From IMG/VR virus record IMGVR_UViG_3300047462_000385, positions 1 through 64,000 of that record: a stretch of DNA of 64,000 nucleotides; one strand, given 5' to 3'. The DNA comes from an uncultured virus (IMG/VR IMGVR_UViG_3300047462_000385) (lineage: Duplodnaviria > Heunggongvirae > Uroviricota > Caudoviricetes). Below are positions 73 through 59,637 of the stretch, piece by piece. The position numbers and the translations under genes are program-made. The number at the start of each line of letters is the position of its first letter. Position 1 is the first letter of the stretch. A model generated the notes under the pieces. The model was not told where the DNA came from, made no database searches, and saw only the letters and a list, made by a program, of their open reading frames with translations.

Positions 73-534
73 ATGCGTAATCAAGATGAGAACAATCAAG
101 ATGAGAAGCGTTGCGTTCGATGTGGTTATAACGCGCAATACACTTGGTCGGGATTAGAAGTTTGCGGCATGGGTTGCTATAAACTTCAAATGATAACTAA
201 TAAGCCAAACAAGAATCGTGATGTCGAATTCGAAATCATGAAACTATTATGTGATAATATTTCTGTGCAAGGGATTCAAGATGCACTTGATAACATCATT
301 AGGAATGGTGAAAGTGTTAAAATAGGGGCTACCACCTATTCAAGATATTATCCTAATCATCAAACTTGGGTAATAGAGCTTAATAAATATCATAGAGATA
401 ATTTACTCTGGTTATTCAATGTGATAGGTTATCCTTCTGGTAATGGAATTGAGCCATTTACATTTGCCAATACAGGTGATTGGGCTGTCGATGGTTCGAT
501 TCCATCAGGTACGACCAGTAACGAATGCAGTTAG
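73..534 (+). CDS. hypothetical protein; 3' end runs through an orphan tRNA 3' half, probably truncated
   Basis: 153-aa ORF whose last codons overlap a T-arm/CCA sequence at 490-517. Confidence 0.5.
   Translation: MRNQDENNQDEKRCVRCGYNAQYTWSGLEVCGMGCYKLQMITNKPNKNRDVEFEIMKLLCDNISVQGIQDALDNIIRNGESVKIGATTYSRYYPNHQTWVIELNKYHRDNLLWLFNVIGYPSGNGIEPFTFANTGDWAVDGSIPSGTTSNECS
490..517 (+). pseudogene. orphan 3' half of a tRNA (Ile-like)
   Basis: GATGG-TTCGATT-CCATC T-arm plus AGGTACG-A-CCA; the last 11 nt match the 3' end of tRNA-Ile at 2052-2062; no 5' half upstream. Confidence 0.75.
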
Positions 535-719
535 GATTACATAGCTAACGACCTTAAAGTAGCTACTAGTCCCGAGAGGGATCACACGACGGCATCAAAA
601 CGATCAAACAGGTAATGCTGAGGTCCACTGAACTCCTTGAGTTTAAGATGCGGGGCGAACGGCAATCGAAAGATTGCAATGTGCAGGTCATAAAGTGTCT
701 TAACAATTACTTGTCGTTA
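519..719 (+). ncRNA. Y-RNA-like ncRNA 1 (putative Ro60/Rsr-binding stem, non-tRNA inner module)
   Basis: TAACGA/TCGTTA terminal stem, ATGC bulge, GTTAGGAT/GTCTTAAC stem, TACAT; same frame as 2968 and 34279; several inner hairpins. Confidence 0.6.
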
Positions 720-1190
720 TATTCTTTTTTTATTTCTTCCACAATAGGTGGGCGTTTGAGAGTGACAATTTGGGCACAATAATCTAAGATTAGATAATTC
801 GTTATTTGTATTGTCTCCATCAATATGATCAAGGTGCAAAGAAAGAGGTTTTCCTTGCCACTTAGAAATATGACACTCAATACATTCATTGATAAAAATG
901 TTTTCCGAAATCAATCTTAAACGTAATTGATGAGTATTATATGGTTTGCCACCTTTTATCAAAAGGGTTTTTAACGGAATTTTAGCGTTGTTAGGATGAG
1001 GTTTTCCTTCCCAGTGACTTTGCCCTGTAAAATGGCTAATGTCTAAATTGAGTTCTTTGACTCTTTGATAAAATAATTTGTAGGAGCCTCCAGCGGGTAC
1101 TAGACCTAATGTTTTAAGTGCTCCTCTTACAGAGTAATTATTTTTAATAGCTTCGATAAATTGTTCGTTAGTATATGTTCTTTTACTCAT
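717..1190 (-). CDS. HNH homing endonuclease
   Basis: LHLDHIDGDNTNNELSNLRLLCPNCH motif. Confidence 0.9.
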   Translation of the reverse strand: MSKRTYTNEQFIEAIKNNYSVRGALKTLGLVPAGGSYKLFYQRVKELNLDISHFTGQSHWEGKPHPNNAKIPLKTLLIKGGKPYNTHQLRLRLISENIFINECIECHISKWQGKPLSLHLDHIDGDNTNNELSNLRLLCPNCHSQTPTYCGRNKKRI

Positions 1191-1987: not shown

Positions 1988-2062
1988 CGTACCTTCATCC
2001 AACGGTTAAGACGGATGTCTGATAAACATCAAACGGTAGTTCGACTCTGCCAGGTACGACCA
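1988..2062 (+). tRNA. tRNA-Ile(GAT)
   Basis: CGTACCT/AGGTACG acceptor, GATGT-CTGATAA-ACATC, ACCA. Confidence 0.88.
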
Positions 2063-2083
2063 TAATTCTTTATTGGAGCATTC

Positions 2084-2962
2084 ATGAGCAAGACAAATTA
2101 CGATGAGTTGATGGCAGAACATAATAGAGATGAACTTCTAGAAAAGGCTGCTAAATTCTATACTAAGCTAAGACTAGAGCTAGCAGCTAGATCAGACAAT
2201 GAGCATGTGGGCTCTGGAATGGGCGGCAATGCCTCTCAGTTTTTCTTTCTACTTTCGCACAAAGTAGAGATTGACACAGCGCCTGTCTCAGCTTTTTTCA
2301 GCCGTGTTGAAGGTCATAGAATTCGTTTTCATGTGCCGTCTAAACCAGACATCAAACAAGTTAGAAAAGAACTAACCAAGTTCTTTGATGGGCATCCAGA
2401 TAAATTGGAAGTAACGAACGAGCAATTGTTAGACTCTACGTTTCTTAAAGAGCACCAATCAAAATCTCTAGAAATAAAACTGCTTGCTAGAGCAATAGAA
2501 GAATCGAAATTATTAACTGAATGGTTGGATCGAAAGATTGCATTACAAAATACTATTCGTAAAGCTTTTAGTGAAGAATACAAATCAATCGAAACTTCAT
2601 TTCTGAAGGAAATGGATCTTCCACTTTCATATTTCAGTGATCAAGAAGATGAAGAAGAGGTAGACTATACTCGTTTACCAATAAGAAAAATGCTGAATCA
2701 ACATCCAGTTTGGGGTGTTCGAAAGAAGGCTGTAGCCAAGCGACAAGAAGAAATGATAAAGCAATTGCTAAGTCAAGAAGATTTGGAAAGGATTTCCTTC
2801 ATTGGAAGTTTCCCAACCTATACAACGCTATTCGCTTTTAGAGCGTGTATCGGTATTGAAAGAATAGTTAGTCTCAATTTAGATGAATTGCCAGAGTGCG
2901 CATTCCTGAGTAAGATTAACAGAATTATTTCAGATAAAGATGTTGAGTCTGACGAAGACTAA
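2084..2962 (+). CDS. hypothetical protein
   Basis: 292-aa ORF with GGAG RBS. Confidence 0.7.
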   Translation: MSKTNYDELMAEHNRDELLEKAAKFYTKLRLELAARSDNEHVGSGMGGNASQFFFLLSHKVEIDTAPVSAFFSRVEGHRIRFHVPSKPDIKQVRKELTKFFDGHPDKLEVTNEQLLDSTFLKEHQSKSLEIKLLARAIEESKLLTEWLDRKIALQNTIRKAFSEEYKSIETSFLKEMDLPLSYFSDQEDEEEVDYTRLPIRKMLNQHPVWGVRKKAVAKRQEEMIKQLLSQEDLERISFIGSFPTYTTLFAFRACIGIERIVSLNLDELPECAFLSKINRIISDKDVESDED

Positions 2963-2967
2963 AAAGT

Positions 2968-3113
2968 TTGAAACAAATGCCAGGTAAGGATTACATTCAT
3001 ATGGAGAACAAGGAGAAGGTCCGATTCCTTCCACTGCGACCAAAAGTTTTTATTGCAGTGTAGTGTAATGGCAGCACGTGAAAAAATAATCTTTCCAATT
3101 TTTGTTGTTTCAA
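2968..3113 (+). ncRNA. YrlA-like Y RNA with circularly permuted tRNA module
   Basis: Outer stems TTGAAACAA/TTGTTTCAA and GGTAAGGATTA/TAATCTTTCC enclose T-arm (3015-3031), acceptor 3' strand plus ACCA (3032-3042), linker, acceptor 5' strand TGCAGTG (3054-3060) and D-arm. Confidence 0.75.
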
Positions 3114-3115
3114 TT

Positions 3116-3192
3116 GGTGCTATCGTATTTGAGGTTCAAGACCGCCCGCTGAAAACGGGACGAAATGGGTTCGATTCCCTTCGGCACCACCA
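3116..3192 (+). tRNA. tRNA-Phe(GAA)
   Basis: CCCG-CTGAAAA-CGGG anticodon arm, GGTTCGATTCC, ACCA. Confidence 0.85.
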
Positions 3193-3216
3193 ATGTTATA
3201 TTACTAGAGAACTGCA

Positions 3217-3516
3217 ATGAAAAATCAAGACAAATTAATTCAAGATATTACAGAGTACTTCAATGCACTCAATGAATCCTTTGAACGTCCAAAAATTACT
3301 GTCTCCTTTAAAGAGAATCAATGCGTAGTTCATATCTCCAAGATGTATCATGGTCTTGGAAATTTAGTTTCATTTTCGGCATTGAAATGGTTATCTGAAA
3401 AATTGAAAACCGATAAAATCAATTTAGAAAATGAATACTACCGTGAGGGCTGCGAGTCATGCGATTGGGGCTCCGAGCATTGTGTAGATATCAAATGTTA
3501 TGATGTTCAAGTTTAA
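3217..3516 (+). CDS. hypothetical protein
   Basis: 99-aa ORF with CxxC (GCESCDWG). Confidence 0.65.
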   Translation: MKNQDKLIQDITEYFNALNESFERPKITVSFKENQCVVHISKMYHGLGNLVSFSALKWLSEKLKTDKINLENEYYREGCESCDWGSEHCVDIKCYDVQV

Positions 3517-3523
3517 GGAAGCT

Positions 3524-5320
3524 ATGAAATTAAAGTATTTATCATTTCTATTATTCTTAGTGGGTTGCGGAGCTTTGTTAGCTCCTGTTACCGCTCCCAT
3601 TGTATCTCGCCCCGTACAATATCTGCCTGGTTCCTCTTTTGATGGAACCATAACTAATGGATTAACGGCAGGGGAACGTAAGGCTTATTACTCCATGGAT
3701 GAAGGTATTCAATACCTTCCTATCGATGTACTAATGTCTCTGAAGCGCACTGACGCATCGGGACTAAGAGTAATGGATGAACTTCTCTTTGCTCATCCTG
3801 AAAGATTTGGCTTGTTACCTAACTATGTAAATCCTCAATCGGATATTCCATTAGGTATTACTGTATCAACGGACGGGGATTATGTTCCGATGGCGGGCAT
3901 TAACTGTGCTACTTGCCATACTACAATGATTTCCAATCAAGACGGAAAGTTCTTCTTAGTAGATGGTGGAGCTTCAAGATTCGCCATTGATCGTTTCTTT
4001 GGAGAGATGATCAAGGGGCTGGTTGCCACATTAGTTAATCCAGAAGAGTTTGAAGCTTTCTATGCTCGTTATCGCGCACGCTTAGCTGCCGAAGAAGTTC
4101 CAGAAGATACTGGAGCCCATCGTCAACAAATTGCTACTCTGGTGCAAAAGTCCTATACTGAATCTGATTTGACGCATCTAAAAGTTAAGCTCAATACATT
4201 ACCAGTAGTTGATTCGAGACCAACTACTTTGACTTCCGCCGCATATCCAACTCAAAAACAATTGTCTACTAAGTTGGGAATGTATGTTTATCTTGCTAAG
4301 AGATTCATTTTCTTCTTCGAGCAAGTTAAGTACGGAACTAAAGTCAGCGGCTCTTTAGAGGCTGACGCCGGCTTAGGTCGCTCCAATCCTTGGTCATCTA
4401 CCAAGAAGATGTTAAATGATAAATTTATTCACTCTAAGTCATCTTATCAAATTGAAGGTGGTCCAGTGAATACTCCATTCAATTGGGATTTGGATCGTCA
4501 ACACTGGATTTTCTATACTGGTGTTACCAACTCTCTAGTAGAAAGAAACATGGCACAAGGTGTTGCCCTGTTAACAGACTTCAATGACACCACCTTTGAG
4601 AGTACTGTCTCCATTAGGAAGTTAGACCAAGTAGTTTCTTATGCTAAGAGAACAGCTCCACCAGTTTGGTCAGAGAGTATATTAGGATCTATTGATACTG
4701 GGCTTGCTGATAAAGGCAAAGTTCTTTTCCAATCCAAATGCTTAGGGTGTCACGATCCTCATCAGAATGATACTGTTACTGCCTCTGCGTATTATCAATA
4801 CATGGATGTTGGAACAGATGATGCATACTTCAAAGGTCAGTTAGAAAAGCTTGATGGCAAGGATTTGTTTAAGGACGTATTAACTCCATTCATGGCTAAG
4901 GTAAAAACTACTGCAGCAAAGAATGAAAACATTTATTTCTTAGAACCATACGAGACCAACAGAACTCCTGTTGTTTGGAAGACTCCAACTATCAATGGGT
5001 TTGCAGCAAAGCCATTGTATGGTGTCTGGGCAACTCCTCCGTTCCTACACAACGGTAGTGTCCCAACTATGTGGGATTTGCTTCAACCAACTGCGCAACG
5101 TCCAAGACAATTTCATATTGGTGGGTTTGTTTACGACTCAAAGAAGCTGGGTTACGTAGAAGATAAGACCTTGCCAGATGGATTTGATTTCCAGGTTTCT
5201 TGTGCATCATGTGACGGCAATGATAATCGTGGACACGAATTTGGAACTGATTTGTCAGATAATGATAAGTGGGCACTGATTGAATTTATGAAGTCTTATA
5301 CAAAGGAAACGACGTTCTAA
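3524..5320 (+). CDS. exported di-heme cytochrome c (RoxA/di-heme peroxidase-like), putative lipoprotein
   Basis: Two CxxCH (CATCH, CLGCH), LYGVWATPPFLHNGSVPT, GNDNRGHEFG, signal peptide with LVGC. Confidence 0.85.
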   Translation: MKLKYLSFLLFLVGCGALLAPVTAPIVSRPVQYLPGSSFDGTITNGLTAGERKAYYSMDEGIQYLPIDVLMSLKRTDASGLRVMDELLFAHPERFGLLPNYVNPQSDIPLGITVSTDGDYVPMAGINCATCHTTMISNQDGKFFLVDGGASRFAIDRFFGEMIKGLVATLVNPEEFEAFYARYRARLAAEEVPEDTGAHRQQIATLVQKSYTESDLTHLKVKLNTLPVVDSRPTTLTSAAYPTQKQLSTKLGMYVYLAKRFIFFFEQVKYGTKVSGSLEADAGLGRSNPWSSTKKMLNDKFIHSKSSYQIEGGPVNTPFNWDLDRQHWIFYTGVTNSLVERNMAQGVALLTDFNDTTFESTVSIRKLDQVVSYAKRTAPPVWSESILGSIDTGLADKGKVLFQSKCLGCHDPHQNDTVTASAYYQYMDVGTDDAYFKGQLEKLDGKDLFKDVLTPFMAKVKTTAAKNENIYFLEPYETNRTPVVWKTPTINGFAAKPLYGVWATPPFLHNGSVPTMWDLLQPTAQRPRQFHIGGFVYDSKKLGYVEDKTLPDGFDFQVSCASCDGNDNRGHEFGTDLSDNDKWALIEFMKSYTKETTF

Positions 5321-5556
5321 TGAAAATACAATTAGAAAAAGCAAGTGGGTCAGCGAAATGTCGAGGACCCAATTGCACGGATAATCCAGCTTACATTTCT
5401 GAAAAAGGTCGCATCAAAAAAGATACCACATGTGTTGGTATAACTATCCGAAGTGCAGCGGGAAGCAATACCTCCTACTATTGTAGGGAGTGTATTGATA
5501 AATTGTATGAAGATATGAGAAAGATTCTTAATCCAAAGTTATGGATTTTCTTATGA
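5320..5556 (+). CDS. small Zn-finger hypothetical protein
   Basis: Cys pairs CRGPNC and CREC. Confidence 0.55.
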   Translation: MKIQLEKASGSAKCRGPNCTDNPAYISEKGRIKKDTTCVGITIRSAAGSNTSYYCRECIDKLYEDMRKILNPKLWIFL

Positions 5557-13076: not shown

Positions 13077-13406
13077 TGAGAGTGGATTGGACAATCGCGA
13101 TTATATCGAGGAAAGTCGGAGCAGTTAGAGCAACTTGCCAGGTAACGCCTGGACACCGTGAGGTGGTGGAAAGTGCAACAGAAAATATACCGCCCGTAAG
13201 GGTAAGGGTGAAAAGGTGAGGTAAAAGCTTACCGCATATTTGGTAACAAGTATGGCATTGCAAACCCCAAGTGCTGCAAGCCTAATAGAGAGTGACACGC
13301 TCGGTCAATACTCTCTGGTTGGTGCTAGAATGATTGGGTGACCAATCATCAAGATTAATGATTGTCTCGTTTTATAGACAGGACTCCGCTTATAGATCCA
13401 CTCTCA
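13077..13406 (+). ncRNA. rnpB: RNase P RNA, bacterial type A
   Basis: P1 TGAGAGTGGAT/ATCCACTCTCA; GAGGAAAGTC; GGAAAGTGCAACAGA; AAGGGTGAAAAGGTGAGGTAA; GCAAACCCC; ACAGGACTCCGCTTA. Confidence 0.93.
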
Positions 13407-13431
13407 TTTTTTATTTGGAGAACATGACATT

Positions 13432-14645: not shown

Positions 14646-14963
14646 ATGAGCACAAATACAGATGTTCAAGAACAATTGGCAAGCATTCAGCCCATTCTTG
14701 AAGCCGCACATACGGTTATCGATTCGATGAAGCTTGGTGAGCGCAAACAAATCAAGACTTTGGCACAAGAAGTCGGAGCAAAGCTTGGCAAGGAAGCCAA
14801 GGATGTGCTAGGTTTTGTCAATCATTTCGCCCACAATACCAAGATTGCTTATGTAACTCGTGGTAAGAATGGTGGAATCATCAAAGGTGTCAAGCCTGTC
14901 AAGACCCCAAAGGTCAGCAAGAAAGATAAGGCTGCTGATACTTTTACGACTCCAACTGTCTAA
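14646..14963 (+). CDS. small basic hypothetical protein (possibly DNA-binding)
   Basis: AGGAGA RBS; Lys-rich, TRGKNGG. Confidence 0.65.
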   Translation: MSTNTDVQEQLASIQPILEAAHTVIDSMKLGERKQIKTLAQEVGAKLGKEAKDVLGFVNHFAHNTKIAYVTRGKNGGIIKGVKPVKTPKVSKKDKAADTFTTPTV

Positions 14964-15007
14964 TAATCCTGCATCTAGATTAGATATAGTCTAGTTGCGA
15001 GGTTTGT

Positions 15008-15331
15008 TTGACTAGAGACCGCGAATTTATAGAAAAGTTAATTAAGTCCTGGGCGCAAGACCATCACAGTGGTTTTGTGATTGCAGAATTAGACCCCACT
15101 CAAGAAGCTCTGGATAAAACCGGAGGACACTTGACTTGGGTGATTAGAGAGAAGCATGCCAACATCGATCTGCTTGCTTTAGCGGATCGTTTGGAAGTCT
15201 TTCTTGAGAACAAAAAGCGTCGTCTTGCTGGCATGCATTGCAAAAAATGTATGGTCTTTTACGACTATGCAGAGCCTAACCAAGCTGACGGTTCCATGAT
15301 TTGTTATTCGTGTCGAAACCCTTGTGGCTAA
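15008..15331 (+). CDS. hypothetical Zn-ribbon protein
   Basis: CKKC...CYSC. Confidence 0.6.
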   Translation: MTRDREFIEKLIKSWAQDHHSGFVIAELDPTQEALDKTGGHLTWVIREKHANIDLLALADRLEVFLENKKRRLAGMHCKKCMVFYDYAEPNQADGSMICYSCRNPCG

Positions 15332-15349: not shown

Positions 15350-16636
15350 ATGAAGAACCTAGAAATTATTGGCGGTGGTACGGTCTTTCATGTCCGTAAC
15401 CATCTCGCATTAACTGCGCCTGCTTATGGCGAAACAGCCCGACAATTACAAGAAATGTGCTTCGAGCACGGCTCTGATTACTACAACATCAACTTACATT
15501 TAACCAAAATGGCTAATGCTGGTGTAGGAAATTTGGAAACCAATCAAGACATTTCAAAGCTGGTTGATGAGTTGATTGCCAACAAGGATACACGAATCAT
15601 TTTCTTCAACCCCGCTTTAGTGGACTATGAAGGTAGCATTGCTGCGTCTGGTCCAGTTGGGTATAACTGGGCAGATGATTTGCCAACCAAGAGTGGTAAA
15701 TACGAAGATCGACTCAAGACTTCGCAAGGTAAACAGATGATGATTCTAACACCATCCGATAAGGTGTTAAAGAAAATTCGTAAAGAGCGCAAAGATATTT
15801 TCTTGGTTGCTTTCAAAACAACTTGCGGGGCTACAGCAGATGAGCAGTTTTTAACTGGATTGCACTTGCTCAAATCCTCCAGCTGTAACCTTGTTTTGGC
15901 TAATGATACTAAGACTCGCGTCAACATGATCATTACTCCTGAGCAGGCTCGCTACTGTGTTACCACTAATCGCAAGGAAGCTCTTGAGAATTTGGCTAAG
16001 ATGACAATCCATAGAGCAGATGCTAAGTTTACTCGCTCTACTGTGGTTCCCGGCTACCTAGTTCCATGGGATATGGACAACATTCCCCATTCTTTGAAGG
16101 CGGTTGTTGATCACTGCATTGCCAAGGGAGCATACAAACCTTTCAATGGATCTACCGTTGGTCACTTCGCATTCAAGGTCAGTGACTCTAAGTTCATTAC
16201 GTCTATGCGTAAGACAGACTTCAACAACCTAAGCAAGGTTGGAGTGGTTTTGTGTGAAGCTGATGGCGATAATTCGGTGATTGCCCATGGAGCCAAGCCA
16301 TCTGTTGGTGGACAGTCTCAAAGGATTGTATTCAAGGATCATCCTGAAACAGACTGCATTGTTCACTTCCATTGCCCGCCTAAGCCAGAAGCTAAGCTGT
16401 CAGTTAGGGAACAGAAGTATTTCGAGTGTGGTAGTCATGAGTGTGGAAAGAACACTAGCATTGGTCTTAGGGAAGAGGTTCCGGGTGTCAAATGCGTCTT
16501 TCTAGACCAGCATGGACCAAACATCGTTTTCAATCATAGCATCGATCCTAAGAAGGTAATTGACTTCATTGAGAGAAATTTTGATCTGTCCAAGTCTACT
16601 GACCAAGTAAATCGTAATGTGGTGGAAGTCAAATGA
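15350..16636 (+). CDS. CoaB/DFP-like ligase domain fused to class II aldolase/adducin-like domain
   Basis: GGGT..VRN, ALVDY, KVLKKIRK..LVAFK, LVLAND; C-terminal HPETDCIVHFH. Confidence 0.65.
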   Translation: MKNLEIIGGGTVFHVRNHLALTAPAYGETARQLQEMCFEHGSDYYNINLHLTKMANAGVGNLETNQDISKLVDELIANKDTRIIFFNPALVDYEGSIAASGPVGYNWADDLPTKSGKYEDRLKTSQGKQMMILTPSDKVLKKIRKERKDIFLVAFKTTCGATADEQFLTGLHLLKSSSCNLVLANDTKTRVNMIITPEQARYCVTTNRKEALENLAKMTIHRADAKFTRSTVVPGYLVPWDMDNIPHSLKAVVDHCIAKGAYKPFNGSTVGHFAFKVSDSKFITSMRKTDFNNLSKVGVVLCEADGDNSVIAHGAKPSVGGQSQRIVFKDHPETDCIVHFHCPPKPEAKLSVREQKYFECGSHECGKNTSIGLREEVPGVKCVFLDQHGPNIVFNHSIDPKKVIDFIERNFDLSKSTDQVNRNVVEVK

Positions 16637-19009: not shown

Positions 19010-19097
19010 GGAAATGTGCTAGAGTGGTTTATAAGGCTTGTCTACTAAACAAGAGAACCGAAAGGTTCCGTGGGTTCGAATCCCACCATTTCCTCCA
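19010..19097 (+). tRNA. tRNA-Ser(ACT)
   Basis: CTTGT-CTACTAA-ACAAG, long variable arm, CCA. Confidence 0.85.
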
Positions 19098-19302: not shown

Positions 19303-19393
19303 GGAAGTATGGCAGAGTGGTTTATCGCGTTCGCCTTGAAAGCGAAAGGGGGTTAATAGCCTTCCGTGGGTTCGAATCCTACTACTTCCTCCA
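19303..19393 (+). tRNA. tRNA-Ser(TGA)
   Basis: TTCGC-CTTGAAA-GCGAA, long variable arm, CCA. Confidence 0.92.
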
Positions 19394-19413
19394 GTTATTT
19401 TATTAGGTATTCA

Positions 19414-20355
19414 ATGAAGAAGATTGCTACATTAGTTGGTTGCGCCATTGGTGATGCCCTTGGTAACCCATTTGAAACAAAGCCTGCTGACAATCCAAAG
19501 CTAGTTGCTTGGGATGGGCAGTTCCAAGCTGGTGGTACGTTTTGGGTTGGTGAACCAGGTCAATACACCGACGATACCCTAATGAGTATTGCATTGGCAA
19601 CTAGCCTAGTAGAACACAATGGCTTCAATGCTGAGGACGTTGCTCAGAGATATTTGGCTTGGATGGAGTCTGGTAATACCCGAGGTATTGGTGGGACTAC
19701 TGCGGCTGCTCTTCATAATATCAAGAACGGAATGTCTTACTTGGAAAGTGGATTATCACTTAACAATGATGGCACTCCTGTTGGTGGCAATGGTACTGCA
19801 ATGAGAGCTTCACCAATTGGTTTGGCTTATCGTCATGATTTAAGCAAGCTATTGTCGGTTGCAGTGGAAGATGCTTCCATTACTCACAATTCGGATGAAC
19901 CTAAAATGGGATCCATTGCAGTTGCATTGGGAACTGCTTTATTGGCTATGGGAGATGTTCCAGCAGTCAAACATTCATCTCTTGGAGTTCTTCCGGGAGT
20001 GATTAATGTCCTTTCGGTTAACGATTGTATTGTTGTTGCCAAATTGAAATTGGCATATGAACTTTGGAAAGATGAGGTTCCGGCAGAAGAGGCACTTGCC
20101 GAAATCGGGACCAGGGGTTATGTTCCTGAGACGGTAGCCGCCGCTTTCTATTGTCTCGCCGCCACAGATAATTTTAAAGATTGTGTTGTGATGGCAGTCA
20201 AGGGTGGAGGCGATACGGACACAACGGCTGCTATAGTGGGCGCTATGGCTGGCACGCTGTATGGTTTAGAGGGCATTCCAGAAGAGTATAAGAGCGTTGA
20301 AAACTTCGAATTATTGCAGGATTTGACTGACGAACTTATCAATATCGAGATATAA
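19414..20355 (+). CDS. ADP-ribosylglycohydrolase (DraG/ARH family)
   Basis: AIGDALG, YTDDT, GNGTAMRASP, GGDTDT. Confidence 0.92.
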   Translation: MKKIATLVGCAIGDALGNPFETKPADNPKLVAWDGQFQAGGTFWVGEPGQYTDDTLMSIALATSLVEHNGFNAEDVAQRYLAWMESGNTRGIGGTTAAALHNIKNGMSYLESGLSLNNDGTPVGGNGTAMRASPIGLAYRHDLSKLLSVAVEDASITHNSDEPKMGSIAVALGTALLAMGDVPAVKHSSLGVLPGVINVLSVNDCIVVAKLKLAYELWKDEVPAEEALAEIGTRGYVPETVAAAFYCLAATDNFKDCVVMAVKGGGDTDTTAAIVGAMAGTLYGLEGIPEEYKSVENFELLQDLTDELINIEI

Positions 20356-20601: not shown

Positions 20602-20693
20602 GGAAATGTGGGTGAGTGGATTATACCGCTTGTCTCTAAAACAAGAGACCGCCTAACGGTGGTCCGAAGGTTCGAATCCTTCCTTTTCCGCCA
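20602..20693 (+). tRNA. Ser-body tRNA with CTA anticodon (amber suppressor-like)
   Basis: CTTGT-CTCTAAA-ACAAG, long variable arm GACCGCC-TAA-CGGTGGTC, G73, CCA. Confidence 0.85.
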
Positions 20694-34202: not shown

Positions 34203-34277
34203 GCGGATGTAATTCAGTGGTAGAATGTCTGCTTGCCAAGCAGAATGTCACGGGTTCGAGCCCCGTCATCCGCTCCA
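34203..34277 (+). tRNA. tRNA-Gly(GCC)
   Basis: TCTGC-TTGCCAA-GCAGA, TCCA. Confidence 0.93.
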
Positions 34278-34278
34278 C

Positions 34279-34398
34279 AGACGAATGCTGATGTGATTAC
34301 ATGGTAAATTTCTAAGGGAAACTTTAGAATAGATGGTTCAAACCCATCAACCTTTCTCGTAAGAGATTGGAAAAAGATCTCATCAATTTTAGTCGTCT
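34279..34398 (+). ncRNA. Y-RNA-like ncRNA 3
   Basis: AGACGA/TCGTCT stem, GACGAATG motif, TGATGTGAT/ATCTCATCA, TACAT; inner T-arm GATGG-TTCAAAC-CCATC. Confidence 0.7.
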
Positions 34399-34403
34399 AT
34401 TAA

Positions 34404-44427: not shown

Positions 44428-45390
44428 ATGTCTAACCCAAATTACACACTAGAAATCATTTCACACCACCCAAAGTTCGATAAGAAGAGCCTCCGTCAAT
44501 ATTACGTAGATGGCATCAATACTGTTGGAGCTTGGGGAGATGAACCATTTGAAATTGTATTCAAAAATCATTCTTGGCAGAAAGTTCAAGTAAAATTATC
44601 TATTGATGGAACTGACATTCTTACTGGAGATAAGGCTGATACAAAAGTCTCCGATGATATGTGGGTTGTAAATGGATATGGCACCTTAAATATAAAAGCT
44701 TGGCCAGAAACCAGTAATGGCGGTGCGCAATTAATATTTACTAGTGCGAACAATAGTGTAGCCGTTCATACTCATGGCGATCTATCTAGCAGAGGAATTA
44801 TCGCTGCAGCCGTTTTTACAGAAGGTCATGTGGAACCAGTTAGATTGAGCCCTCCTGTTATTGTTACTGAAGAGCATCACCATCATCACTATCCTAAGCA
44901 TTATAGTAATCCATTTTATTATCCTGTCATTTGGTACAATACCATCGGCGGCAATACTGGTGGACTTGGTTCAGGCAATGCAACTTTCAATTCTTCCAAT
45001 GTATTAAGAAACAGTCAATCTTTTGATTCAGTTGTTTCCAATAGTATAAATATTGGTGATGCTAGTGGAATTTATACATGCGATGCTTCTCCTCCTAAAG
45101 AACTAGAGAGTTTAGCTGCAGTTGGTGCAGGAGAACATGTTGATCAAAAGATTACTTATGTAACAGGTTTGATTAAGCCAACTCTATCTGAAACTGTTAG
45201 AGTCCGTTACATGTGGTGGGACGATTTGGTTGCCAAGTTGAAGGAACGCAATGTTCCAGCCCCTCATGCTTCCGGTTTTCCTGGCGACAAGAAACAACAC
45301 ATTATGAGCTTGGGTAATACTCCAAGAATTGGTTCTTTTAGTCGAGCTTTCCCACGAGAGCAGGCTGAACCAATGTACAGTAGGATTTGA
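44428..45390 (+). CDS. hypothetical protein
   Basis: 320-aa ORF with AGGAGA RBS. Confidence 0.7.
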   Translation: MSNPNYTLEIISHHPKFDKKSLRQYYVDGINTVGAWGDEPFEIVFKNHSWQKVQVKLSIDGTDILTGDKADTKVSDDMWVVNGYGTLNIKAWPETSNGGAQLIFTSANNSVAVHTHGDLSSRGIIAAAVFTEGHVEPVRLSPPVIVTEEHHHHHYPKHYSNPFYYPVIWYNTIGGNTGGLGSGNATFNSSNVLRNSQSFDSVVSNSINIGDASGIYTCDASPPKELESLAAVGAGEHVDQKITYVTGLIKPTLSETVRVRYMWWDDLVAKLKERNVPAPHASGFPGDKKQHIMSLGNTPRIGSFSRAFPREQAEPMYSRI

Positions 45391-45501: not shown

Positions 45502-45604
45502 TCAATTTGAGTGAATCATTATTTATATCCCAGTGAGGGATTTTAATTTTTCACATAGTTCTCCGGTGAGGAGGTTTAACAGACCGAAATTATAGGAGTA
45601 TACT

Positions 45605-45931
45605 ATGAAAAAAGCAAATATTGTATTGGACGAACAATCAACCGGGTTAACTATCATCGAAAGAATGGATTTTGAGCGCATAGACGCGTTTTTTGATGTA
45701 CTACATGATACTTTCCATCCCAATGAGTCACCTGATGAGTTTGATGTCAGGTTTATATCTTTCTGGAAATTATTTTTGGTTTCTGTTGGGTGGACAGAGA
45801 ATGAGTTTTGGGACGAATGGGATAAGAGACCACATACCTGCAAGGATTGTGGGGCTCATATGGATGAGGACGGAAATCATGTAGATGATGTCTCCAATCC
45901 ACAAACTCCACCAGAGTCAAAACCCAATTAA
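45605..45931 (+). CDS. hypothetical protein
   Basis: 108-aa ORF with AGGAG RBS. Confidence 0.65.
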   Translation: MKKANIVLDEQSTGLTIIERMDFERIDAFFDVLHDTFHPNESPDEFDVRFISFWKLFLVSVGWTENEFWDEWDKRPHTCKDCGAHMDEDGNHVDDVSNPQTPPESKPN

Positions 45932-46041: not shown

Positions 46042-46806
46042 ATGCCTTTAAAATCTAAATATCATGTTTTTTGTAATGATCAATTTGGTTCTTGGACAGT
46101 AATCGAAATAAATAAGCCAAAATCTCGCACCTTAGTTAGATGTATTTGTGGTTTTGAAAAATCAATTAGAACAGCCGACTTGGTAACAGGTCGCTCCCGC
46201 TCTTGTGGAAAAAGAGTATGTTTTGCAGATTATTCATGTCTTTTGGGAATGAGATTTGGATTTTTGTCAGTATTGAAAATCACTGATGAAAGATCGAATA
46301 ATGGCTCAATTATATGGGAATGCAAATGTATTTGTGGAACAATTTGTTATATTCCTTCGAAAAACTTAATCGCTGGTGCATCAAAAAGTTGCGGATGCAA
46401 GCGTGCTCAAAATAAAAACTCAACAATTGGTTTATTATCAGAAGATGATAGAGCAACCAAAAGAATTTTGAATTCATATAAAAGAAATGCTAAGCGCAGA
46501 AATATTGAGTGGAAATTATCGTATGATGAATTCTCATCTCTAATATCTAAAGATTGCCATTATTGTGGCGTATCTCCCAATAAAACTGTAGTTATTAAAA
46601 GAACCGATAACACAATCATATTTAATTATAATGGCATAGATAGGTTGGATAGCAATAGCGATTATACCATACAGAATTGTGTAACTTGTTGCTGGGTCTG
46701 TAATCGTGCCAAATTAGATATGTCATATTCGGCGTGGGTAAAATGGATAGACCAACTTATTAAATTTCAAACCAATTGTGCTACTAATATCGTGATATAT
46801 GTTTGA
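46042..46806 (+). CDS. homing endonuclease (HNH-like, CxC repeats)
   Basis: WECKCICG..SKSCGC; CHYCG..NGIDRLDS..NCVTCCWVCN. Confidence 0.82.
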   Translation: MPLKSKYHVFCNDQFGSWTVIEINKPKSRTLVRCICGFEKSIRTADLVTGRSRSCGKRVCFADYSCLLGMRFGFLSVLKITDERSNNGSIIWECKCICGTICYIPSKNLIAGASKSCGCKRAQNKNSTIGLLSEDDRATKRILNSYKRNAKRRNIEWKLSYDEFSSLISKDCHYCGVSPNKTVVIKRTDNTIIFNYNGIDRLDSNSDYTIQNCVTCCWVCNRAKLDMSYSAWVKWIDQLIKFQTNCATNIVIYV

Positions 46807-46837
46807 ATGCAAGTTCTCATTGAGAGGACGAATGCAT
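46807..46837 (+). promoter_or_regulatory. conserved leader motif upstream of NadM-Nudix
   Basis: 23/25 nt identical to 47878-47902; own closing stem ATGC/GCAT. Confidence 0.6.
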
Positions 46838-46861
46838 GCTCTAAAGAAGAGCGAGGTTAAT

Positions 46862-47875
46862 ATGGAAAAATTTGATTTTTGTGTATTCATTGGGCGTTTT
46901 TCTCCCCTTCAGAAAGCTCACAAATTTATTTTGGACAAAGCTCTTACCATAGCAGAAAAGGTGATTGTGGTGGTGGGAAGTTGTGGTTCGCCCCGCACCA
47001 TAAGAAATCCGTGGTCTGGCGATGAGCGTCAAGAAATGATTAGGCGGTGTCTCTCTTCGGAAGAAAAAGATAGAGTGATATTTATTTCAATGAAGGATTA
47101 TACTTACAATGATAATTTGTGGATATCAACACTTCAACAAAAAGTGAGTGAAGCCACGGATTATTCCGAAAAAGTATCCCTAATAGGATACGAAAGTGAT
47201 GAATCATCATATTATTTGAAACTTTTTCCCCAATATAAATATATTCAATGCGGGACAGAATATAATTTTCATGCCACCCAAGTTAGAGATTTATATTTTT
47301 CACATAACGCATCTTACAAAACAATGGTACCAAATGGTGTTGCTGAATATTTAGAAAATTTTAAGCAAACCAAAGAATTCGTGAACATAAAGCAAGAAAA
47401 GTATTTTATAGACAATTACAAAGAACAATGGCGAGGAGCCCCATTTCCACCCATATTTGTAACTGTTGATACAATAGTTGTGAAGTCTGGTCACGTATTG
47501 ATTGTGACTAGAAGGTCTAATCCTGGTAAGGGTTTGCTGGCTCTGCCTGGTGGTTTCGTCAATCAAAAAGAGAAATTGCAAGACGCCGCCCTCAGAGAAT
47601 TAAAAGAGGAAACCGGTATCAAAATTAATACTCCAGATTTAAAAAAATCGATAGCCGACTTTAAAGTATTTGATGACCCCTTGCGTTCTGCTCGCGGTCG
47701 TACTATTACTAATGCATACCTAATTGATTTGGGGATAGGTCCACTCCCTCAAGTAAAAGGAGCTGACGATGCAGAGAGAGCGTTTTGGTTACCTTTGGGC
47801 GAATTTCATTCGATGGAGAATGAATTTTTCGAGGACCACTACCATATAATAAAGTATTTTGTTTCCAAGTTCTGA
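46862..47875 (+). CDS. nadM: bifunctional NMN adenylyltransferase / Nudix ADP-ribose pyrophosphatase
   Basis: IGRFSP..H, NPW, Nudix box LPGG...ALRELKEETG, DH. Confidence 0.92.
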   Translation: MEKFDFCVFIGRFSPLQKAHKFILDKALTIAEKVIVVVGSCGSPRTIRNPWSGDERQEMIRRCLSSEEKDRVIFISMKDYTYNDNLWISTLQQKVSEATDYSEKVSLIGYESDESSYYLKLFPQYKYIQCGTEYNFHATQVRDLYFSHNASYKTMVPNGVAEYLENFKQTKEFVNIKQEKYFIDNYKEQWRGAPFPPIFVTVDTIVVKSGHVLIVTRRSNPGKGLLALPGGFVNQKEKLQDAALRELKEETGIKINTPDLKKSIADFKVFDDPLRSARGRTITNAYLIDLGIGPLPQVKGADDAERAFWLPLGEFHSMENEFFEDHYHIIKYFVSKF

Positions 47876-47904
47876 GCCAAGTTCTCACTGAGAGAACGAA
47901 TGGC
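47876..47904 (+). promoter_or_regulatory. conserved leader motif upstream of NAMPT
   Basis: Second copy, closing stem GCC/GGC. Confidence 0.6.
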
Positions 47905-47922
47905 AAACATACGGAGAGTATA

Positions 47923-49323
47923 ATGAAAACCAATCGTTTTAGTTACTTGTTTGATACAGACAGCTACAAAGTTTCCCACTACTTGCAGTATCCTCCTGGT
48001 ACCACAAGTATGTTCTCCTACATCGAAAGCCGAGGCGGAGAATACAGTGAAACTGTTTTCTTTGGATTGCAATACTACTTGAAGGAATATTTGACTCATC
48101 GAGTTACAGTAGAAGAGGTTGAGAAAGCCAAGGTACTCTTTGCGGCACATGGCGAGCCATTCAACTATGACGGCTGGATGTACATTGCCAAAGATTTGAA
48201 AGGCAAGCTCCCCATTCGTATTCGCGCCGTACCAGAAGGAACTGTGGTTCCAACCCATAATATTCTTGTCAGTATTGAATCTACTGATCCGAAAGTGTTT
48301 TGGATTGTTTCTTGGATTGAAACCATGTTGCTTAGGGTTTGGTATCCTATCACGGTAGCTAGCCGCAGTCGTACAATTCGTGGTATTATTTTGCGTGCAT
48401 TGCAAGCATCTTCGGATGATCCGCAAGCAGAAATCAGCTTTAAGCTTCATGACTTTGGCTCGCGTGGAGTTAGTAGCCAAGAGTCTGCTATGATTGGTGG
48501 CGCAGCCCACTTGGTCAATTTTATGGGAAGTGATACGGTTGTGGGAGTGTTATGTGCCAATGAGTACTACAATATTCCAATGGCTGGATTCAGCATTCCG
48601 GCAGCAGAACATAGCTCCATTACTTCTTGGGGCAAAGAAAATGAAGTTGAAGCATATCGTAATATGCTAAAGCAATTCGCTAAGCCGGGCGCCTTGGTTG
48701 CCTGTGTATCGGACTCTTACGACTTGTGGAATGCTTGTTCTCACTTGTGGGGTGATCAGTTGAAGCAGGAAGTGATTGATTCTGGTGCAGTGGTCATCAT
48801 TCGCCCCGACTCTGGTCATCCTCCTACGGTAGTGCTAAAGACCGTTAAACTATTGGAAGAAAAGTTTGGAACGACCATTAACAAGAGGGGCTATAAGGTC
48901 TTGAAAAATGTCCGTATCATTCAGGGCGACGGCATCAATGAAAGGTCTATCCAGCTGATCCTAGACACTTTGATGGACAATGGTTACAGTGCCACGAACA
49001 TTGCTTTTGGTATGGGTGGCGCTTTGCTACAACAACTCAACCGTGATACTGAAAAATTTGCTATGAAGTGCAGCCATATTTTCATCGGAGACAAATCGGT
49101 GGATGTATTCAAAGATCCAGTGACTGACAAGGGCAAGGCAAGCAAAGCAGGACGTTTGGATTTGTGCTTCAATGAACGCGGCGGTTATGAAACCGTTCCT
49201 TTGTTTGAAGATGAGGTTTCTCATAAACGCACTGTTATGAAGACGGTATATGAGAATGGTGAGATTTTGGTGGACGATAATTTCGAAGAAATTAGAAAGA
49301 GAGTTCGTCATGAAGGTGCTTAA
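47923..49323 (+). CDS. nadV: nicotinamide phosphoribosyltransferase
   Basis: TDSYKVSH, LHDFGSRG, PAAEHS, IRPDSG, IQGDG, GMGG. Confidence 0.95.
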   Translation: MKTNRFSYLFDTDSYKVSHYLQYPPGTTSMFSYIESRGGEYSETVFFGLQYYLKEYLTHRVTVEEVEKAKVLFAAHGEPFNYDGWMYIAKDLKGKLPIRIRAVPEGTVVPTHNILVSIESTDPKVFWIVSWIETMLLRVWYPITVASRSRTIRGIILRALQASSDDPQAEISFKLHDFGSRGVSSQESAMIGGAAHLVNFMGSDTVVGVLCANEYYNIPMAGFSIPAAEHSSITSWGKENEVEAYRNMLKQFAKPGALVACVSDSYDLWNACSHLWGDQLKQEVIDSGAVVIIRPDSGHPPTVVLKTVKLLEEKFGTTINKRGYKVLKNVRIIQGDGINERSIQLILDTLMDNGYSATNIAFGMGGALLQQLNRDTEKFAMKCSHIFIGDKSVDVFKDPVTDKGKASKAGRLDLCFNERGGYETVPLFEDEVSHKRTVMKTVYENGEILVDDNFEEIRKRVRHEGA

Positions 49324-49490: not shown

Positions 49491-50060
49491 ATGATTAAAG
49501 TCATCAACTACCACTACAAGTCCCAACCTGGTGATTTGGTGGTCAATGCAACTTCTCGATCAAAAGATTGGAGCCAGTCCTTAAGCCCATTCTTTTGTGG
49601 ACCATGTGAGTTGTATAATGGTTATGTTTCCCAAAATATGGAAAATGCTTGGCAATATAGCAAGGTCTATGAATATTATCTAGAAGATAATGGAACTGTG
49701 GGCAAAAGATATTTCGATTGGGCATAGAGCGGTTGGAACAAAATCAGAGCCGATCGTTATCCAATGGGCAAAGAAGCAAAACCTTTGTATTCTTATTGGG
49801 ACGGTGAAAAATTTTCTTATGTAGAAGCAAGAAAGAAAATATACATCCCGCTATATGCTCGTGCAGTACAGCGAACGTTTGCTTTTGAAAAATTAAAAGA
49901 TCTAGCTAAAGCTAACGAAAAAGTATTTCTTTTAGATTTTGATGCGCATAATTTGGAACCTGGTACGTTTGATTACTGGGAACTAGTTAACAATCCAAAT
50001 CTAAAAGTGGGACATGCATATGTGTTGGCAATGCTATTAGAAGGAATAATACATGAGTAA
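49491..50060 (+). CDS. NADAR/DUF6939-like protein with in-frame TAG at 49725-49727
   Basis: TSRS..LSPF..ENAWQYSKV..DWA*SGW..YPMGK..YVEARKKIYIPLY..HAYVLA; both halves in frame. Confidence 0.6.
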
Positions 50061-50967
50061 CGTACTATTAGGAACAGCTGTTGCAGATGCACTTGGCGTT
50101 CCGTTTGAAACTAAGCTAATAAACAACCCAGCCTTATTGGAATGGGATGGCAAAAGTTTCTTGGGTAGTGAACACCATAAGCTACAACCAGGACAATACT
50201 CAGATGATACTCAAATGAGTTTGATGGTTGCCGAATCTCTAATTGAGAATCGTGGTTTCAATCCAGACGATTTGTCTGCTAGGTACGTAGATTGGATGAC
50301 TTCTGGTCGAGCTAGAGGTTGGGGCAAAACTACCTTGATGGCAATTCAGAATTTGACTTCTGGCAAACATTGGAGTGAATCTGGTATTGTTGGCTCTCTT
50401 GGCAATGGTACCGCTATGCGCTCCGCACCATTTGGAGTCTATTTCCGCAATGACCTCAAATCATTAGTCGATATCTGTAAAGTTGATAGTGCTATCACCC
50501 ACGTATCACCAGATGCTGAGGCTGGTTCGATTGCTATTGCAGTGGCAGCTTATTACGCTGTCAATGATGATTCTGACAATTTGTTAGAAAAGATTTGGGC
50601 TCACTTGCCAGATAGTAAGGTAAAGAATACTGTCTATAGTTTAGATGCTTTGATTAGCTCTGACCACATTAGCCCACGGCAAGCTCTCAAGGTACTTGGT
50701 ACCAAGGCTAACGTTCAAGAAACAGTTCCAGCAGCACTATATTGCTTCTTGAAGTTTGATAACTACTATGATGCAGTGGTAACTGCTATCAAGGCTGGTG
50801 GAGATACTGACACGACTGCCGCTATTGTCGGCGCCTTATTTGGCGCAAAATATGGCATGAAAGCCATTGATCCTGCTTTCTATGCGGTAGAAGACTTCGA
50901 TAAGCTTATTGCTTTAGACAGTCAATTATTCAACAGATCTGATTCTTCATTCTTTCCAAGAGGGTAA
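50053..50967 (+). CDS. ADP-ribosylglycohydrolase (second copy)
   Basis: DALG, YSDDT, GNGTAMR, GGDTDT. Confidence 0.92.
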   Translation: MSNVLLGTAVADALGVPFETKLINNPALLEWDGKSFLGSEHHKLQPGQYSDDTQMSLMVAESLIENRGFNPDDLSARYVDWMTSGRARGWGKTTLMAIQNLTSGKHWSESGIVGSLGNGTAMRSAPFGVYFRNDLKSLVDICKVDSAITHVSPDAEAGSIAIAVAAYYAVNDDSDNLLEKIWAHLPDSKVKNTVYSLDALISSDHISPRQALKVLGTKANVQETVPAALYCFLKFDNYYDAVVTAIKAGGDTDTTAAIVGALFGAKYGMKAIDPAFYAVEDFDKLIALDSQLFNRSDSSFFPRG

Positions 50968-59071: not shown

Positions 59072-59637
59072 GACTGTACTATCTTTTACCATTGATTTTG
59101 GGGTGCCAATCAGTAGCCTCTTCATCTAATTTATCAGAAGAAGATGCCGGAACCGATGTTGCTCCTCCACATCAAAACATTACAATAGTGGGAGATTCTA
59201 CTGCTGGCTATGCCAGCTGGAAACTTAATGACGTCAGGCAGCCTAATGAGACAATTACAGTTCATTACAAGGGTGGTACGCCAATTACCTATTGGAATGA
59301 TGGTCATTTCACAGAAGCACTGAATCAATCTCCTAGAACTGATGTGGTAATCATCTTTTTGGGAACGGTTAATTTCAATTTTCCATGGTTACCAAGTGTA
59401 CAGCGAATATTAAACGAAGTTACCGCCCGTCACCTCAAGTGTATTTGGGTGGGACCAACCGCCGTACATGGCGAAAAACATGTCATCAACACTTTATTAA
59501 AAAATAAAGTCACTCCAACTTGTGCTTACATTGATACAGAGAGCTTGAACATACCACTGGGTGATGGAGTTCATCCCACACCGGACGGCACAGTCAAATG
59601 GCTAAAGGAAATCTGGAAAGTCAAAAGTACGTTATGA
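59068..59637 (+). CDS. SGNH/GDSL hydrolase, putative lipoprotein
   Basis: VGDS, LGTVN, DGVHP. Confidence 0.8.
   Translation: MRLYYLLPLILGCQSVASSSNLSEEDAGTDVAPPHQNITIVGDSTAGYASWKLNDVRQPNETITVHYKGGTPITYWNDGHFTEALNQSPRTDVVIIFLGTVNFNFPWLPSVQRILNEVTARHLKCIWVGPTAVHGEKHVINTLLKNKVTPTCAYIDTESLNIPLGDGVHPTPDGTVKWLKEIWKVKSTL

Follow-up and report, generated by a model that had tools for sequence, protein, structure and literature searches.

A probable YrlA-type Y RNA gene with a tRNA-like head in a tRNA operon of a huge phage

Positions 2968-3113 in the uncultured virus record IMGVR_UViG_3300047462_000385 probably contain a huge-phage gene for a divergent Y RNA of the YrlA type, as judged from sequence comparisons. 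The window analyzed here is a 64,000-nt stretch corresponding to the first 64 kb of this 130,362-bp record (estimated completeness, ~30%), and coordinates given without a prefix are positions in the window. Y RNAs bind the Ro60 ring through their stem, and gate the ring or tether a partner to it. In the predicted RNA, the two ends would pair into a rod (the terminal helix P1, an internal loop, and the helix P2), in which CAAAUGC, GGAUUACAU, and CAAUUUUUGU form a putative Ro60 (Rsr)-binding module, and the middle would form a tRNA-like head consisting of a T-arm, a 7-bp acceptor stem, and a D-arm, with the rod in place of the anticodon arm. The original prediction for this DNA had described a T-arm, a 7-bp acceptor hairpin with ACCA, an 11-nt linker, a D-arm, and a long closing stem in the topology of YrlA; all of these parts were found in the sequence and in the minimum free energy (MFE) fold, which reproduced exactly this arrangement (Table 1). 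The acceptor stem comprises seven pairs, of which the 1-72 pair is U.G. The Rfam YrlA model aligned end to end over 2970-3114, and the same order (T-arm, acceptor-like stem-loop, D-arm) is given for YrlA by Chen et al. 2014 (RNA 20:1715, PMC4201824). The closing stem does replace the anticodon arm, as had been proposed, although its probable nature as a conserved Y-RNA/Ro60-binding module had been missed.

Nine distinct orthologues, including the window element, were identified, the others in huge-phage contigs, with scores of 95-156 bits using R1, a covariance model built from six orthologues aligned by MAFFT. The route to the first was the upstream open reading frame (ORF) at 2084-2962, with seven homologues at 41-50% identity, whose alignment gave access to L100, a metagenome locus in which the genes are arranged in the same way: tRNA-Ile, the ORF, the element, a tRNA-like gene, and tRNA-Phe and tRNA-Lys genes. 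In L100, the rod and both loops (T and D) had almost the same sequence, and the acceptor stem was rewritten from CACUGCG/UGCAGUG to UCCCCCA/UGGGGGA; the flanking protein was only 50% identical, whereas the RNA stem blocks were near-identical. Four more orthologues were obtained by screening the loci of a separate pattern scan (contigs of 45 to 447 kb), and the R1 search later added three. Flanks of the orthologues had 64-78% DNA identity.

RNAalifold predicted the P1, P2, T, acceptor, and D helices from the six aligned orthologues, with compensatory changes in 13 of 32 pairs; when two junction pairs were added (C3009-G3080 and A3010-U3079, the latter covarying as G-C in five sequences and A-U in the window), 14 of 34 pairs were changed on both sides. 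As many as 95.1% of the alignment cells were paired, compared with 44-59% (2-7 compensatory pairs) when the partners were slid, and the covariation values were reached by none of 500 shuffles. Both-sided changes were found in six of the seven acceptor pairs among the six orthologues, and in P1 in three of eight pairs among the orthologues and seven of eight among 41 distinct family members (see below). CAAAUGC and GGATTACA were each invariant in 6/6 orthologues, as was TTGTTG with its flanking bases (the 3' return strand) across the aligned orthologues. The T-loop with C at tRNA position 55 (UCCGANU) was present in all nine, and pseudouridine 55 cannot, therefore, be formed. These comparisons indicate that the element is a real, selected RNA structure, and neither a chance fold nor a decayed tRNA pair.

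Several other searches gave no further relatives. Blastn with window 2000-5400 against GenBank phages found no match; neighbouring proteins used as single queries matched only the identical contig; and two homologous loci (L101 and L102) lacked the element, the conserved gene being followed there by an HNH-type ORF. The pattern CAAATGC..GGATTACA occurred in at least 120 stretches, with family members in none of the 100 loci searched. The pattern GGTCCGATTCC..TAATGGCAG was found in six stretches of viral contigs, one from the same phage and five at ordinary tandem-tRNA junctions with acceptor strands that do not pair. As a separate observation, tRNA positions 8/14 in one orthologue (L078:1494-1632; G002:42400-42540) are A/U, not U/A, i.e., both partners of the tertiary U8-A14 pair are swapped in a single event. 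The tRNA-like gene directly 3' of the element in L100 (L100:3456-3557) has a D-loop insertion of ~29 nt, and was called by neither ARAGORN nor Rfam.

The element belongs to a large family. R1 also gave many full-length matches with lower scores than the orthologues, namely 42 at E <= 0.01 in 153 kb of the same phages and 70 at E <= 0.001 in 427 kb; the latter represent 67 distinct sequences and, after removal of one tandem-tRNA junction that matched model positions 51-105 only, 66 members. Their common frame is P1, AAUGC, P2, and GAUUACAU...CAAUUUUUGU: on the 5' side, a copy-specific P1 is followed by (C/U)(A/G)AAUGC and by P2 ending in GGAUUACAU, and on the 3' return strand CAAUUUUUGU is followed by P1. 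The sequence of P1 differed from copy to copy with compensation, which fits an RNA helix, not the fixed ends of a repeat. The middle part ranged from almost nothing (hairpins of 66-84 nt) through a T-arm with another hairpin to the full T/acceptor/D head. At least 11 members carried GACGAAUG, an exact fit to GNCGAAN0-1G, the Y-RNA motif for Ro60 binding that PMC4201824 proposes as the Rsr contact. One of them, located in the window between two tRNA-Gly genes (Table 1), has a canonical T-arm (GAUGG-UUCAAAC-CCAUC) and a GNRA-capped hairpin with no D-arm, features by which it is classified as YrlB-like. Four more copies were found upstream of the window start on an overlapping contig, giving at least six in this phage overall, and one 63-kb phage fragment (L262, which is G003:1-19000, and L263) contained at least 12 members at E <= 0.01. 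Several members in this fragment are flush with tRNA genes, e.g., 14879-15014 (tRNA-Leu/tRNA-Asn) and 15980-16174 (up to tRNA-Phe).

Among Rfam families, YrlA was the best match for the element (23.9 bits, E = 0.0083 in a 501-nt search, model 1-114), and a paralogue with canonical T and D loops (L262:8610-8742) reached 42.9 bits (E = 3.3e-6 in a 61.5-kb search). Family members were also found in the cultured Myxococcus phage Mx1 (OR576727.2), where two unannotated Y-like RNAs (L291:200-333 and 552-663; 45165-45298 and 45517-45628) lie in the tRNA array ~11.5 kb upstream of the Ro60 gene of this phage, the second under a 'hypothetical protein' coding sequence (locus 559-681).

The family was also associated with Ro60. 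All four records of relatives with an orthologue encode a protein of 520-563 amino acids with TROVE (31-45 bits; cut-off, 23) and Ro60-type vWA (vWA_Ro60; 55-68 bits; cut-off, 27.7) domains, and the Ro60 profile gave whole-length matches to Deinococcus radiodurans Rsr (2NVO, E = 1.4e-19), vertebrate Ro60, and the Ro60 of phage phiLo. In these four relatives, the gene is on the strand of the element, ~5.5, 8, 13, and 24 kb upstream of it. A search with the Ro60 protein yielded 25 loci, of which 21 contained R1 matches; all 60 matches were on the Ro60 strand and 59 were downstream of the gene, the upstream flank being equally long in each locus. R2, a model of the rod (stem) alone, matched 10 of 15 records encoding the Ro60 vWA domain and none of 11 records without it. 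The nearest cultured phage by Ro60 was Mx1 (51% identity). Three other huge-phage records of 350-476 kb with tRNA arrays (G006, G007, and G008, behind L012, L014, and L037) had a Ro60-type vWA domain (29.6-174.8 bits) and no R2 match; their Y RNAs, if any, would be of another type.

Several findings weigh against the assignment as a Y RNA. The fold energy was ordinary (z = -0.91; 41 of 200 shuffles were equally good), and the closing-stem duplex by itself was only moderately unusual, with equal stability in 272 of 3520 genome samples of the same geometry and in 16 of 3000 shuffles; the reality of the element rests on comparison across relatives, not on single-sequence statistics. The score of 23.9 bits is far below the curated gathering score of Rfam YrlA (69), which no family member reached in the 61.5 kb scanned, and the same model gave 14-21 bits at ordinary tandem-tRNA junctions in this genome. 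The motif of the element itself, AACAAAUG, has A at two G positions of GNCGAAN0-1G; its C, A, A, and final G are unchanged, and one G-to-A change is matched by C-to-U on the pairing strand. The association with Ro60 is confounded because the Ro60-encoding records are from a related clade, two of them having been picked via the element itself, and tRNA arrays, which partly resemble R1, lie downstream of the Ro60 gene anyway. Finally, searches of the 130-kb record revealed no Ro60 gene, nor did those of the overlapping 25-kb contig, which matches the record identically in this region, extends another 12.1 kb upstream, and has the gene order of the relatives. The last ORF before the end of this contig is homologous to the gene directly after Ro60 in two relatives (L262/L281 and L277), suggesting that the available sequence stops about where the Ro60 gene is expected.

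The best surviving alternative, which we consider improbable, is a structured tRNA-operon spacer unrelated to Ro60, the rod of which would be bound by another protein or aid the processing or stability of tRNA precursors, with the head as a processing handle. Members do occupy the spacers between tRNA genes, often with no base separating them from these genes, many copies are bare hairpins without the tRNA-like part, the available 142 kb of this phage contains no Ro60 gene, and the association with Ro60 could come from shared ancestry only. Against this alternative stand the exact published binding motif in at least 11 copies, YrlA as the best Rfam match with significance for a paralogue, the finding of the family only in Ro60-encoding records (10 of 15, compared with 0 of 11 others), and its constant location on the Ro60 strand.

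The acceptor loop of the putative Y RNA is composed like an inter-tRNA spacer: a discriminator, CCA, a trailer of free length, and the UAU leader that is usual in this phage. AU directly precedes the acceptor 5' strand in 9/9 orthologues and in 18 of the 23 family members whose acceptor hairpin closes a loop of at least 7 nt; among 110 tRNA genes of these phages, 74 have an AU leader, 95 have A at -2, and 82 have U at -1. NCCA is at the start of the loop in seven of nine orthologues and in 13 of the same 23 members, from several paralogue groups, and CCA is encoded in 99 of the 110 tRNA genes. The linker between CCA and AU varied from 3 to 93 nt among the orthologues with no conserved sequence, and appears to behave like a discarded 3' trailer plus 5' leader. 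The acceptor stem had 7/7 pairs in seven of nine orthologues. The RNase P RNA that the original prediction had placed 10 kb away was real, matching the full class A model (Table 1); two relatives also encode a complete one (G001:411691-412037 and G002:58158-58489), all three lying downstream of the tRNA/Y-RNA region and scoring 257-288 bits. The phage RNA keeps GGU in the L15 region, where bacterial enzymes bind the tRNA CCA end. In addition, a nucleotidyltransferase domain of the CCA-adding family is encoded at G000:67900-68061 of the record.

In Mycobacterium smegmatis YrlA, which has a 7-bp acceptor stem, RNase P cuts at the position of the tRNA 5' end both in vitro and in vivo; CCA forms the end of the 5' piece, 'an additional CA' being added after transcription, and the halves stay bound to Rsr (PMC4201824). 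The nick at 3053/3054 put forward in the original prediction is thus not new as an idea, and in the phage element CCA is encoded and cleavage is predicted. The substrate features of the M. smegmatis type were all present: a 7-bp acceptor stem on a 5-bp T-stem, NCCA, and U at -1. Two features speak against the nick or the use of the encoded CCA. NCCA was missing in two of nine orthologues (L100 and L263/L072), so that the encoded CCA is not essential, and A73 can pair with U(-1) in five of six orthologues, which could hinder or shift cleavage by RNase P. The AU leader, the retained NCCA, and the free length of the linker make the nick likely enough to be plausible for the phage RNA, and we place its chances at about even.

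A second alternative, to which we attach even less probability than to the spacer, is that the nicked, anticodon-less, two-piece RNA alone serves as a decoy or sponge for host toxins that target tRNAs (acceptor-end modifiers or nucleases, or anticodon nucleases). It would fit the conservation of NCCA and of the tRNA-like acceptor/T minihelix, the abundance in the window of genes for tRNA ends and RNA repair (Thg1-like protein, PTH2, two RNA ligases, and a 2H phosphoesterase), and the nucleotidyltransferase described above. However, the lack of an anticodon loop makes the anticodon-nuclease part of the original prediction unlikely; conservation is highest in the rod sequences, for which a pure acceptor-end decoy would have no need; CCA is absent from two of nine orthologues; and no toxin or defence partner was identified. 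The association with Ro60 also points to a Ro60/Y-RNA ribonucleoprotein, not a decoy.

A functionless remnant (the 3' half of a tRNA gene next to the 5' half of its identical tandem neighbour, or else a pseudogene of a permuted tRNA) is hardly credible. In its favour, the order from the T-arm through the acceptor 3' strand, CCA, the spacer, and the acceptor 5' strand to the D-arm is that of a tandem-tRNA junction, the scan for T-loop and D-loop patterns otherwise gave only such junctions (5/6 stretches), and the Rfam YrlA model also scores them. However, the whole structure is preserved in nine orthologues through compensatory changes, conservation of the flanking rod exceeds that of the neighbouring protein, true junctions match only R1 positions 51-105, the record contains no close tRNA paralogue, the acceptor strands of the element pair with each other, and the 64-78% DNA identity in the orthologue flanks disfavours recent copies of one insertion. 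ARAGORN called no tRNA in the native order of the element; as the original prediction had suggested checking, the re-permuted sequence, prepared by a script, was called as a tRNA at default settings once the closing stem was shortened.

The putative phage Y RNA may be compared with known systems. As in YrlA (RF02553), the paired ends form a stem, here with a variant of the Ro60-binding motif, the head consists of a T-arm, an acceptor-like stem-loop, and a D-arm, many tRNA-invariant bases are kept (U8, A14, G18, G19, U54, C56, and A58), and, in the phage relatives, the gene is on the strand of Ro60. It differs from YrlA in its score (23.9 bits against a threshold of 69), in its motif (AACAAAUG instead of GNCGAANG), in C for U55, in being one of many paralogues in tRNA arrays, and in an acceptor loop with an encoded CCA and a tRNA-type leader. 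The tRNA-type modifications that would be expected of a YrlA are pseudouridine 55 (by TruB) and dihydrouridine (by DusA); the phage element has C at 55. The distance to Ro60 is 5-24 kb in the phage relatives, whereas YrlA lies within 4 kb in PMC4201824. YrlA in phages is already known: the same source lists it in 22 phages, including Bacillus phage G and Caulobacter phage CcrColossus, with one YrlA per phage in two rows of its Table S2.

Thermus phage phiLo, like the present clade, encodes Ro60 plus Y-like RNAs (Yrl1/Yrl2, with a CGAA-type motif near the Ro60 gene; NAR 2025, PMC12135203), and its Ro60 is ~24% identical to that of the present clade. The partner of Ro60 is PNPase in D. radiodurans, and the phiLo Ro60 complex binds host PNPase; a tRNA-like head, tRNA-operon arrays, or a link to RNase P are not described for phiLo in the accessible portion of that article. 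According to a survey of jumbo phages (PMC7824862), the RNA-repair sets of some of these phages include TROVE proteins with 'a tRNA-like partner'.

The Rfam family of permuted transfer-messenger RNA (tmRNA; RF04321) gave only a weak partial match at 3165-3219, on tRNA-Phe. In circularly permuted ssrA, the acceptor 3' strand with CCA is upstream of the 5' strand, and processing of the loop produces an RNA in two pieces that has a tRNA-like end; a reading frame for the tag and charging with alanine are features of tmRNA. The element shares the permuted acceptor order, but contains nothing resembling a tag frame or charging. In the circularly permuted tRNA genes of the red alga Cyanidioschyzon merolae, the 3' half, a linker, and the 5' half follow each other, tRNA end-processing enzymes remove the linker, and the joined ends of the transcript form a normal anticodon loop of a working tRNA. 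In contrast, the ends of the element pair into a conserved 20-bp rod that bears a Y-RNA motif and lacks an anticodon: when a functional permuted tRNA was considered, the rod of P1 and P2 with conserved internal loops was found, and no 7-nt anticodon loop.

The following pathway is proposed for the putative Y RNA. It would be made within a tRNA polycistron, its 3' end probably being set as RNase P releases the abutting tRNA-Phe. The inter-tRNA-spacer make-up of the acceptor loop suggests that RNase P, using either the RNA of the phage itself or the host enzyme, probably nicks at 3053/3054; exonucleases would then trim back to CCA, and this would yield, with chances that are again about even, an RNA in two pieces whose acceptor end is truly tRNA-like. 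Acting with a Ro60 ring of the phage or the host, this RNA may gate the ring or tether it to a partner that recognizes tRNA or degrades RNA, with a role, suggested by the family, in RNA surveillance or repair during infection.

A wider scenario is offered tentatively, as one that we think unlikely to hold in full: the huge phages of this clade would carry an arsenal of Ro60-binding Y RNAs in their tRNA operons, and the YrlA-type members would be opened by the phages' own RNase P into CCA-ended, anticodon-less, two-piece tRNAs, the acceptor end of which would then be used (by charging, or by capture by the CCA-adding-family, Thg1-like, and PTH2 proteins). If this is true, the Ro60 ring would be coupled to the repair or surveillance of tRNA ends during infection. 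To our knowledge, only one species has so far been found to open the tRNA-like half of a Y RNA into a two-piece, CCA-ended RNA. In the phages, the gene itself carries signals for opening (a tRNA-type leader, an encoded CCA, and a linker of free length), and several paralogue groups have kept them, which, with the phage RNase P RNA and Ro60 in relatives, argues that the nicked, CCA-ended form is selected. The family may provide a compact system for testing this idea, since the culturable relative Mx1 has copies, and it indicates that Y-like RNAs can be numerous in phage tRNA arrays while escaping the curated Rfam model. The literature covered by a partial search did not describe Y-RNA arrays within tRNA operons of phages; against the same literature, a divergent subfamily below the Rfam threshold, the many tRNA-operon paralogues, and an encoded CCA with a tRNA-type leader are apparently new.

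Table 1. Positions of the putative Y RNA, its parts, and related features in the window.
Feature	Position	Strand	Evidence or remark
P1 5' strand, terminal helix	2969..2976	+	pairs with 3105-3112; MFE fold and RNAalifold
AACAAAUGC, variant of the Y-RNA Ro60-binding motif GNCGAAN0-1G	2972..2980	+	aligns to conserved CgaAUGC of Rfam YrlA
P2 5' strand and conserved GGAUUACAU block	2983..2996	+	P2 = 2983-2993/3087-3096; MFE fold and RNAalifold
Junction and variable region ('V') 5' of the T-arm	2997..3014	+	ARAGORN: long variable arm in the re-permuted form
T-arm GAAGG-UCCGAUU-CCUUC, C at tRNA position 55	3015..3031	+	stem paired in 100% of alignment cells
Acceptor 3' strand CACUGCG	3032..3038	+	pairs with 3054-3060
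Discriminator A3039 and encoded CCA (3040-3042)	3039..3042	+	read from sequence
11-nt A/U linker AAAGTTTTTAT, ending in UAU	3043..3053	+	read from sequence
Acceptor 5' strand UGCAGUG (3054-3060), then U8 A9 (3061-3062)	3054..3062	+	putative RNase P site at 3053/3054
D-arm GUGU-AAUGGCA-GCAC; A14, G18, G19, and A21 present	3063..3077	+	sequence, fold, and covariation
P2 3' strand (3087-3096), conserved CAAUUUUUGU internal loop, P1 3' strand (3105-3112)	3087..3112	+	fold and RNAalifold
Atypical tRNA-Phe(GAA) abutting the element	3116..3192	+	ARAGORN only; below Rfam tRNA threshold; homologue L102:2290-2368
Third Y-like element, same 5'/3' module, long insert	514..724	+	R1 22.7 bits, E = 0.0067; weakest of the three
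Paralogous Y-like RNA between two tRNA-Gly(GCC) genes	34274..34403	+	R1 31.2 bits, full-length alignment
Phage-encoded RNase P RNA, class A, complete	13079..13408	+	257.1 bits, model 1-367

The window contains 25 tRNA genes and, in addition to the genes for RNA repair and tRNA ends mentioned above, encodes EF-Ts and a monomeric, mitochondrial-type PheRS (59598-60701; tRNA-synt_2d and FDX-ACB domains). Scans for promoters and terminators gave signals no better than those in shuffles. The abutting tRNA-Phe has an aberrant D-arm and two stem mismatches, both of which are repaired in its homologue. At the start of the window, a tRNA (1-69) is followed by an ORF of 153 amino acids (73-534), a second copy of a tRNA 3' half (T-arm, acceptor strand, and CCA) is located at ~483-516, and the region 1-724 looks like a tRNA gene disrupted or duplicated by the inserted ORF. 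ORFs in the window read well in code 11. The loci 20602-20693 and 19010-19097 comprise one amber-suppressor tRNA (anticodon CUA), with a long variable arm and a close resemblance to the neighbouring tRNA-Ser genes, and one tRNA-Ser in which the anticodon is the unusual ACU. An NAD-salvage pair (NMNAT-Nudix and NAMPT) and two ADP-ribosylglycohydrolases, encoded at 46799-49323, 19366-20355, and 50053-50967, are likely counter-defence genes.

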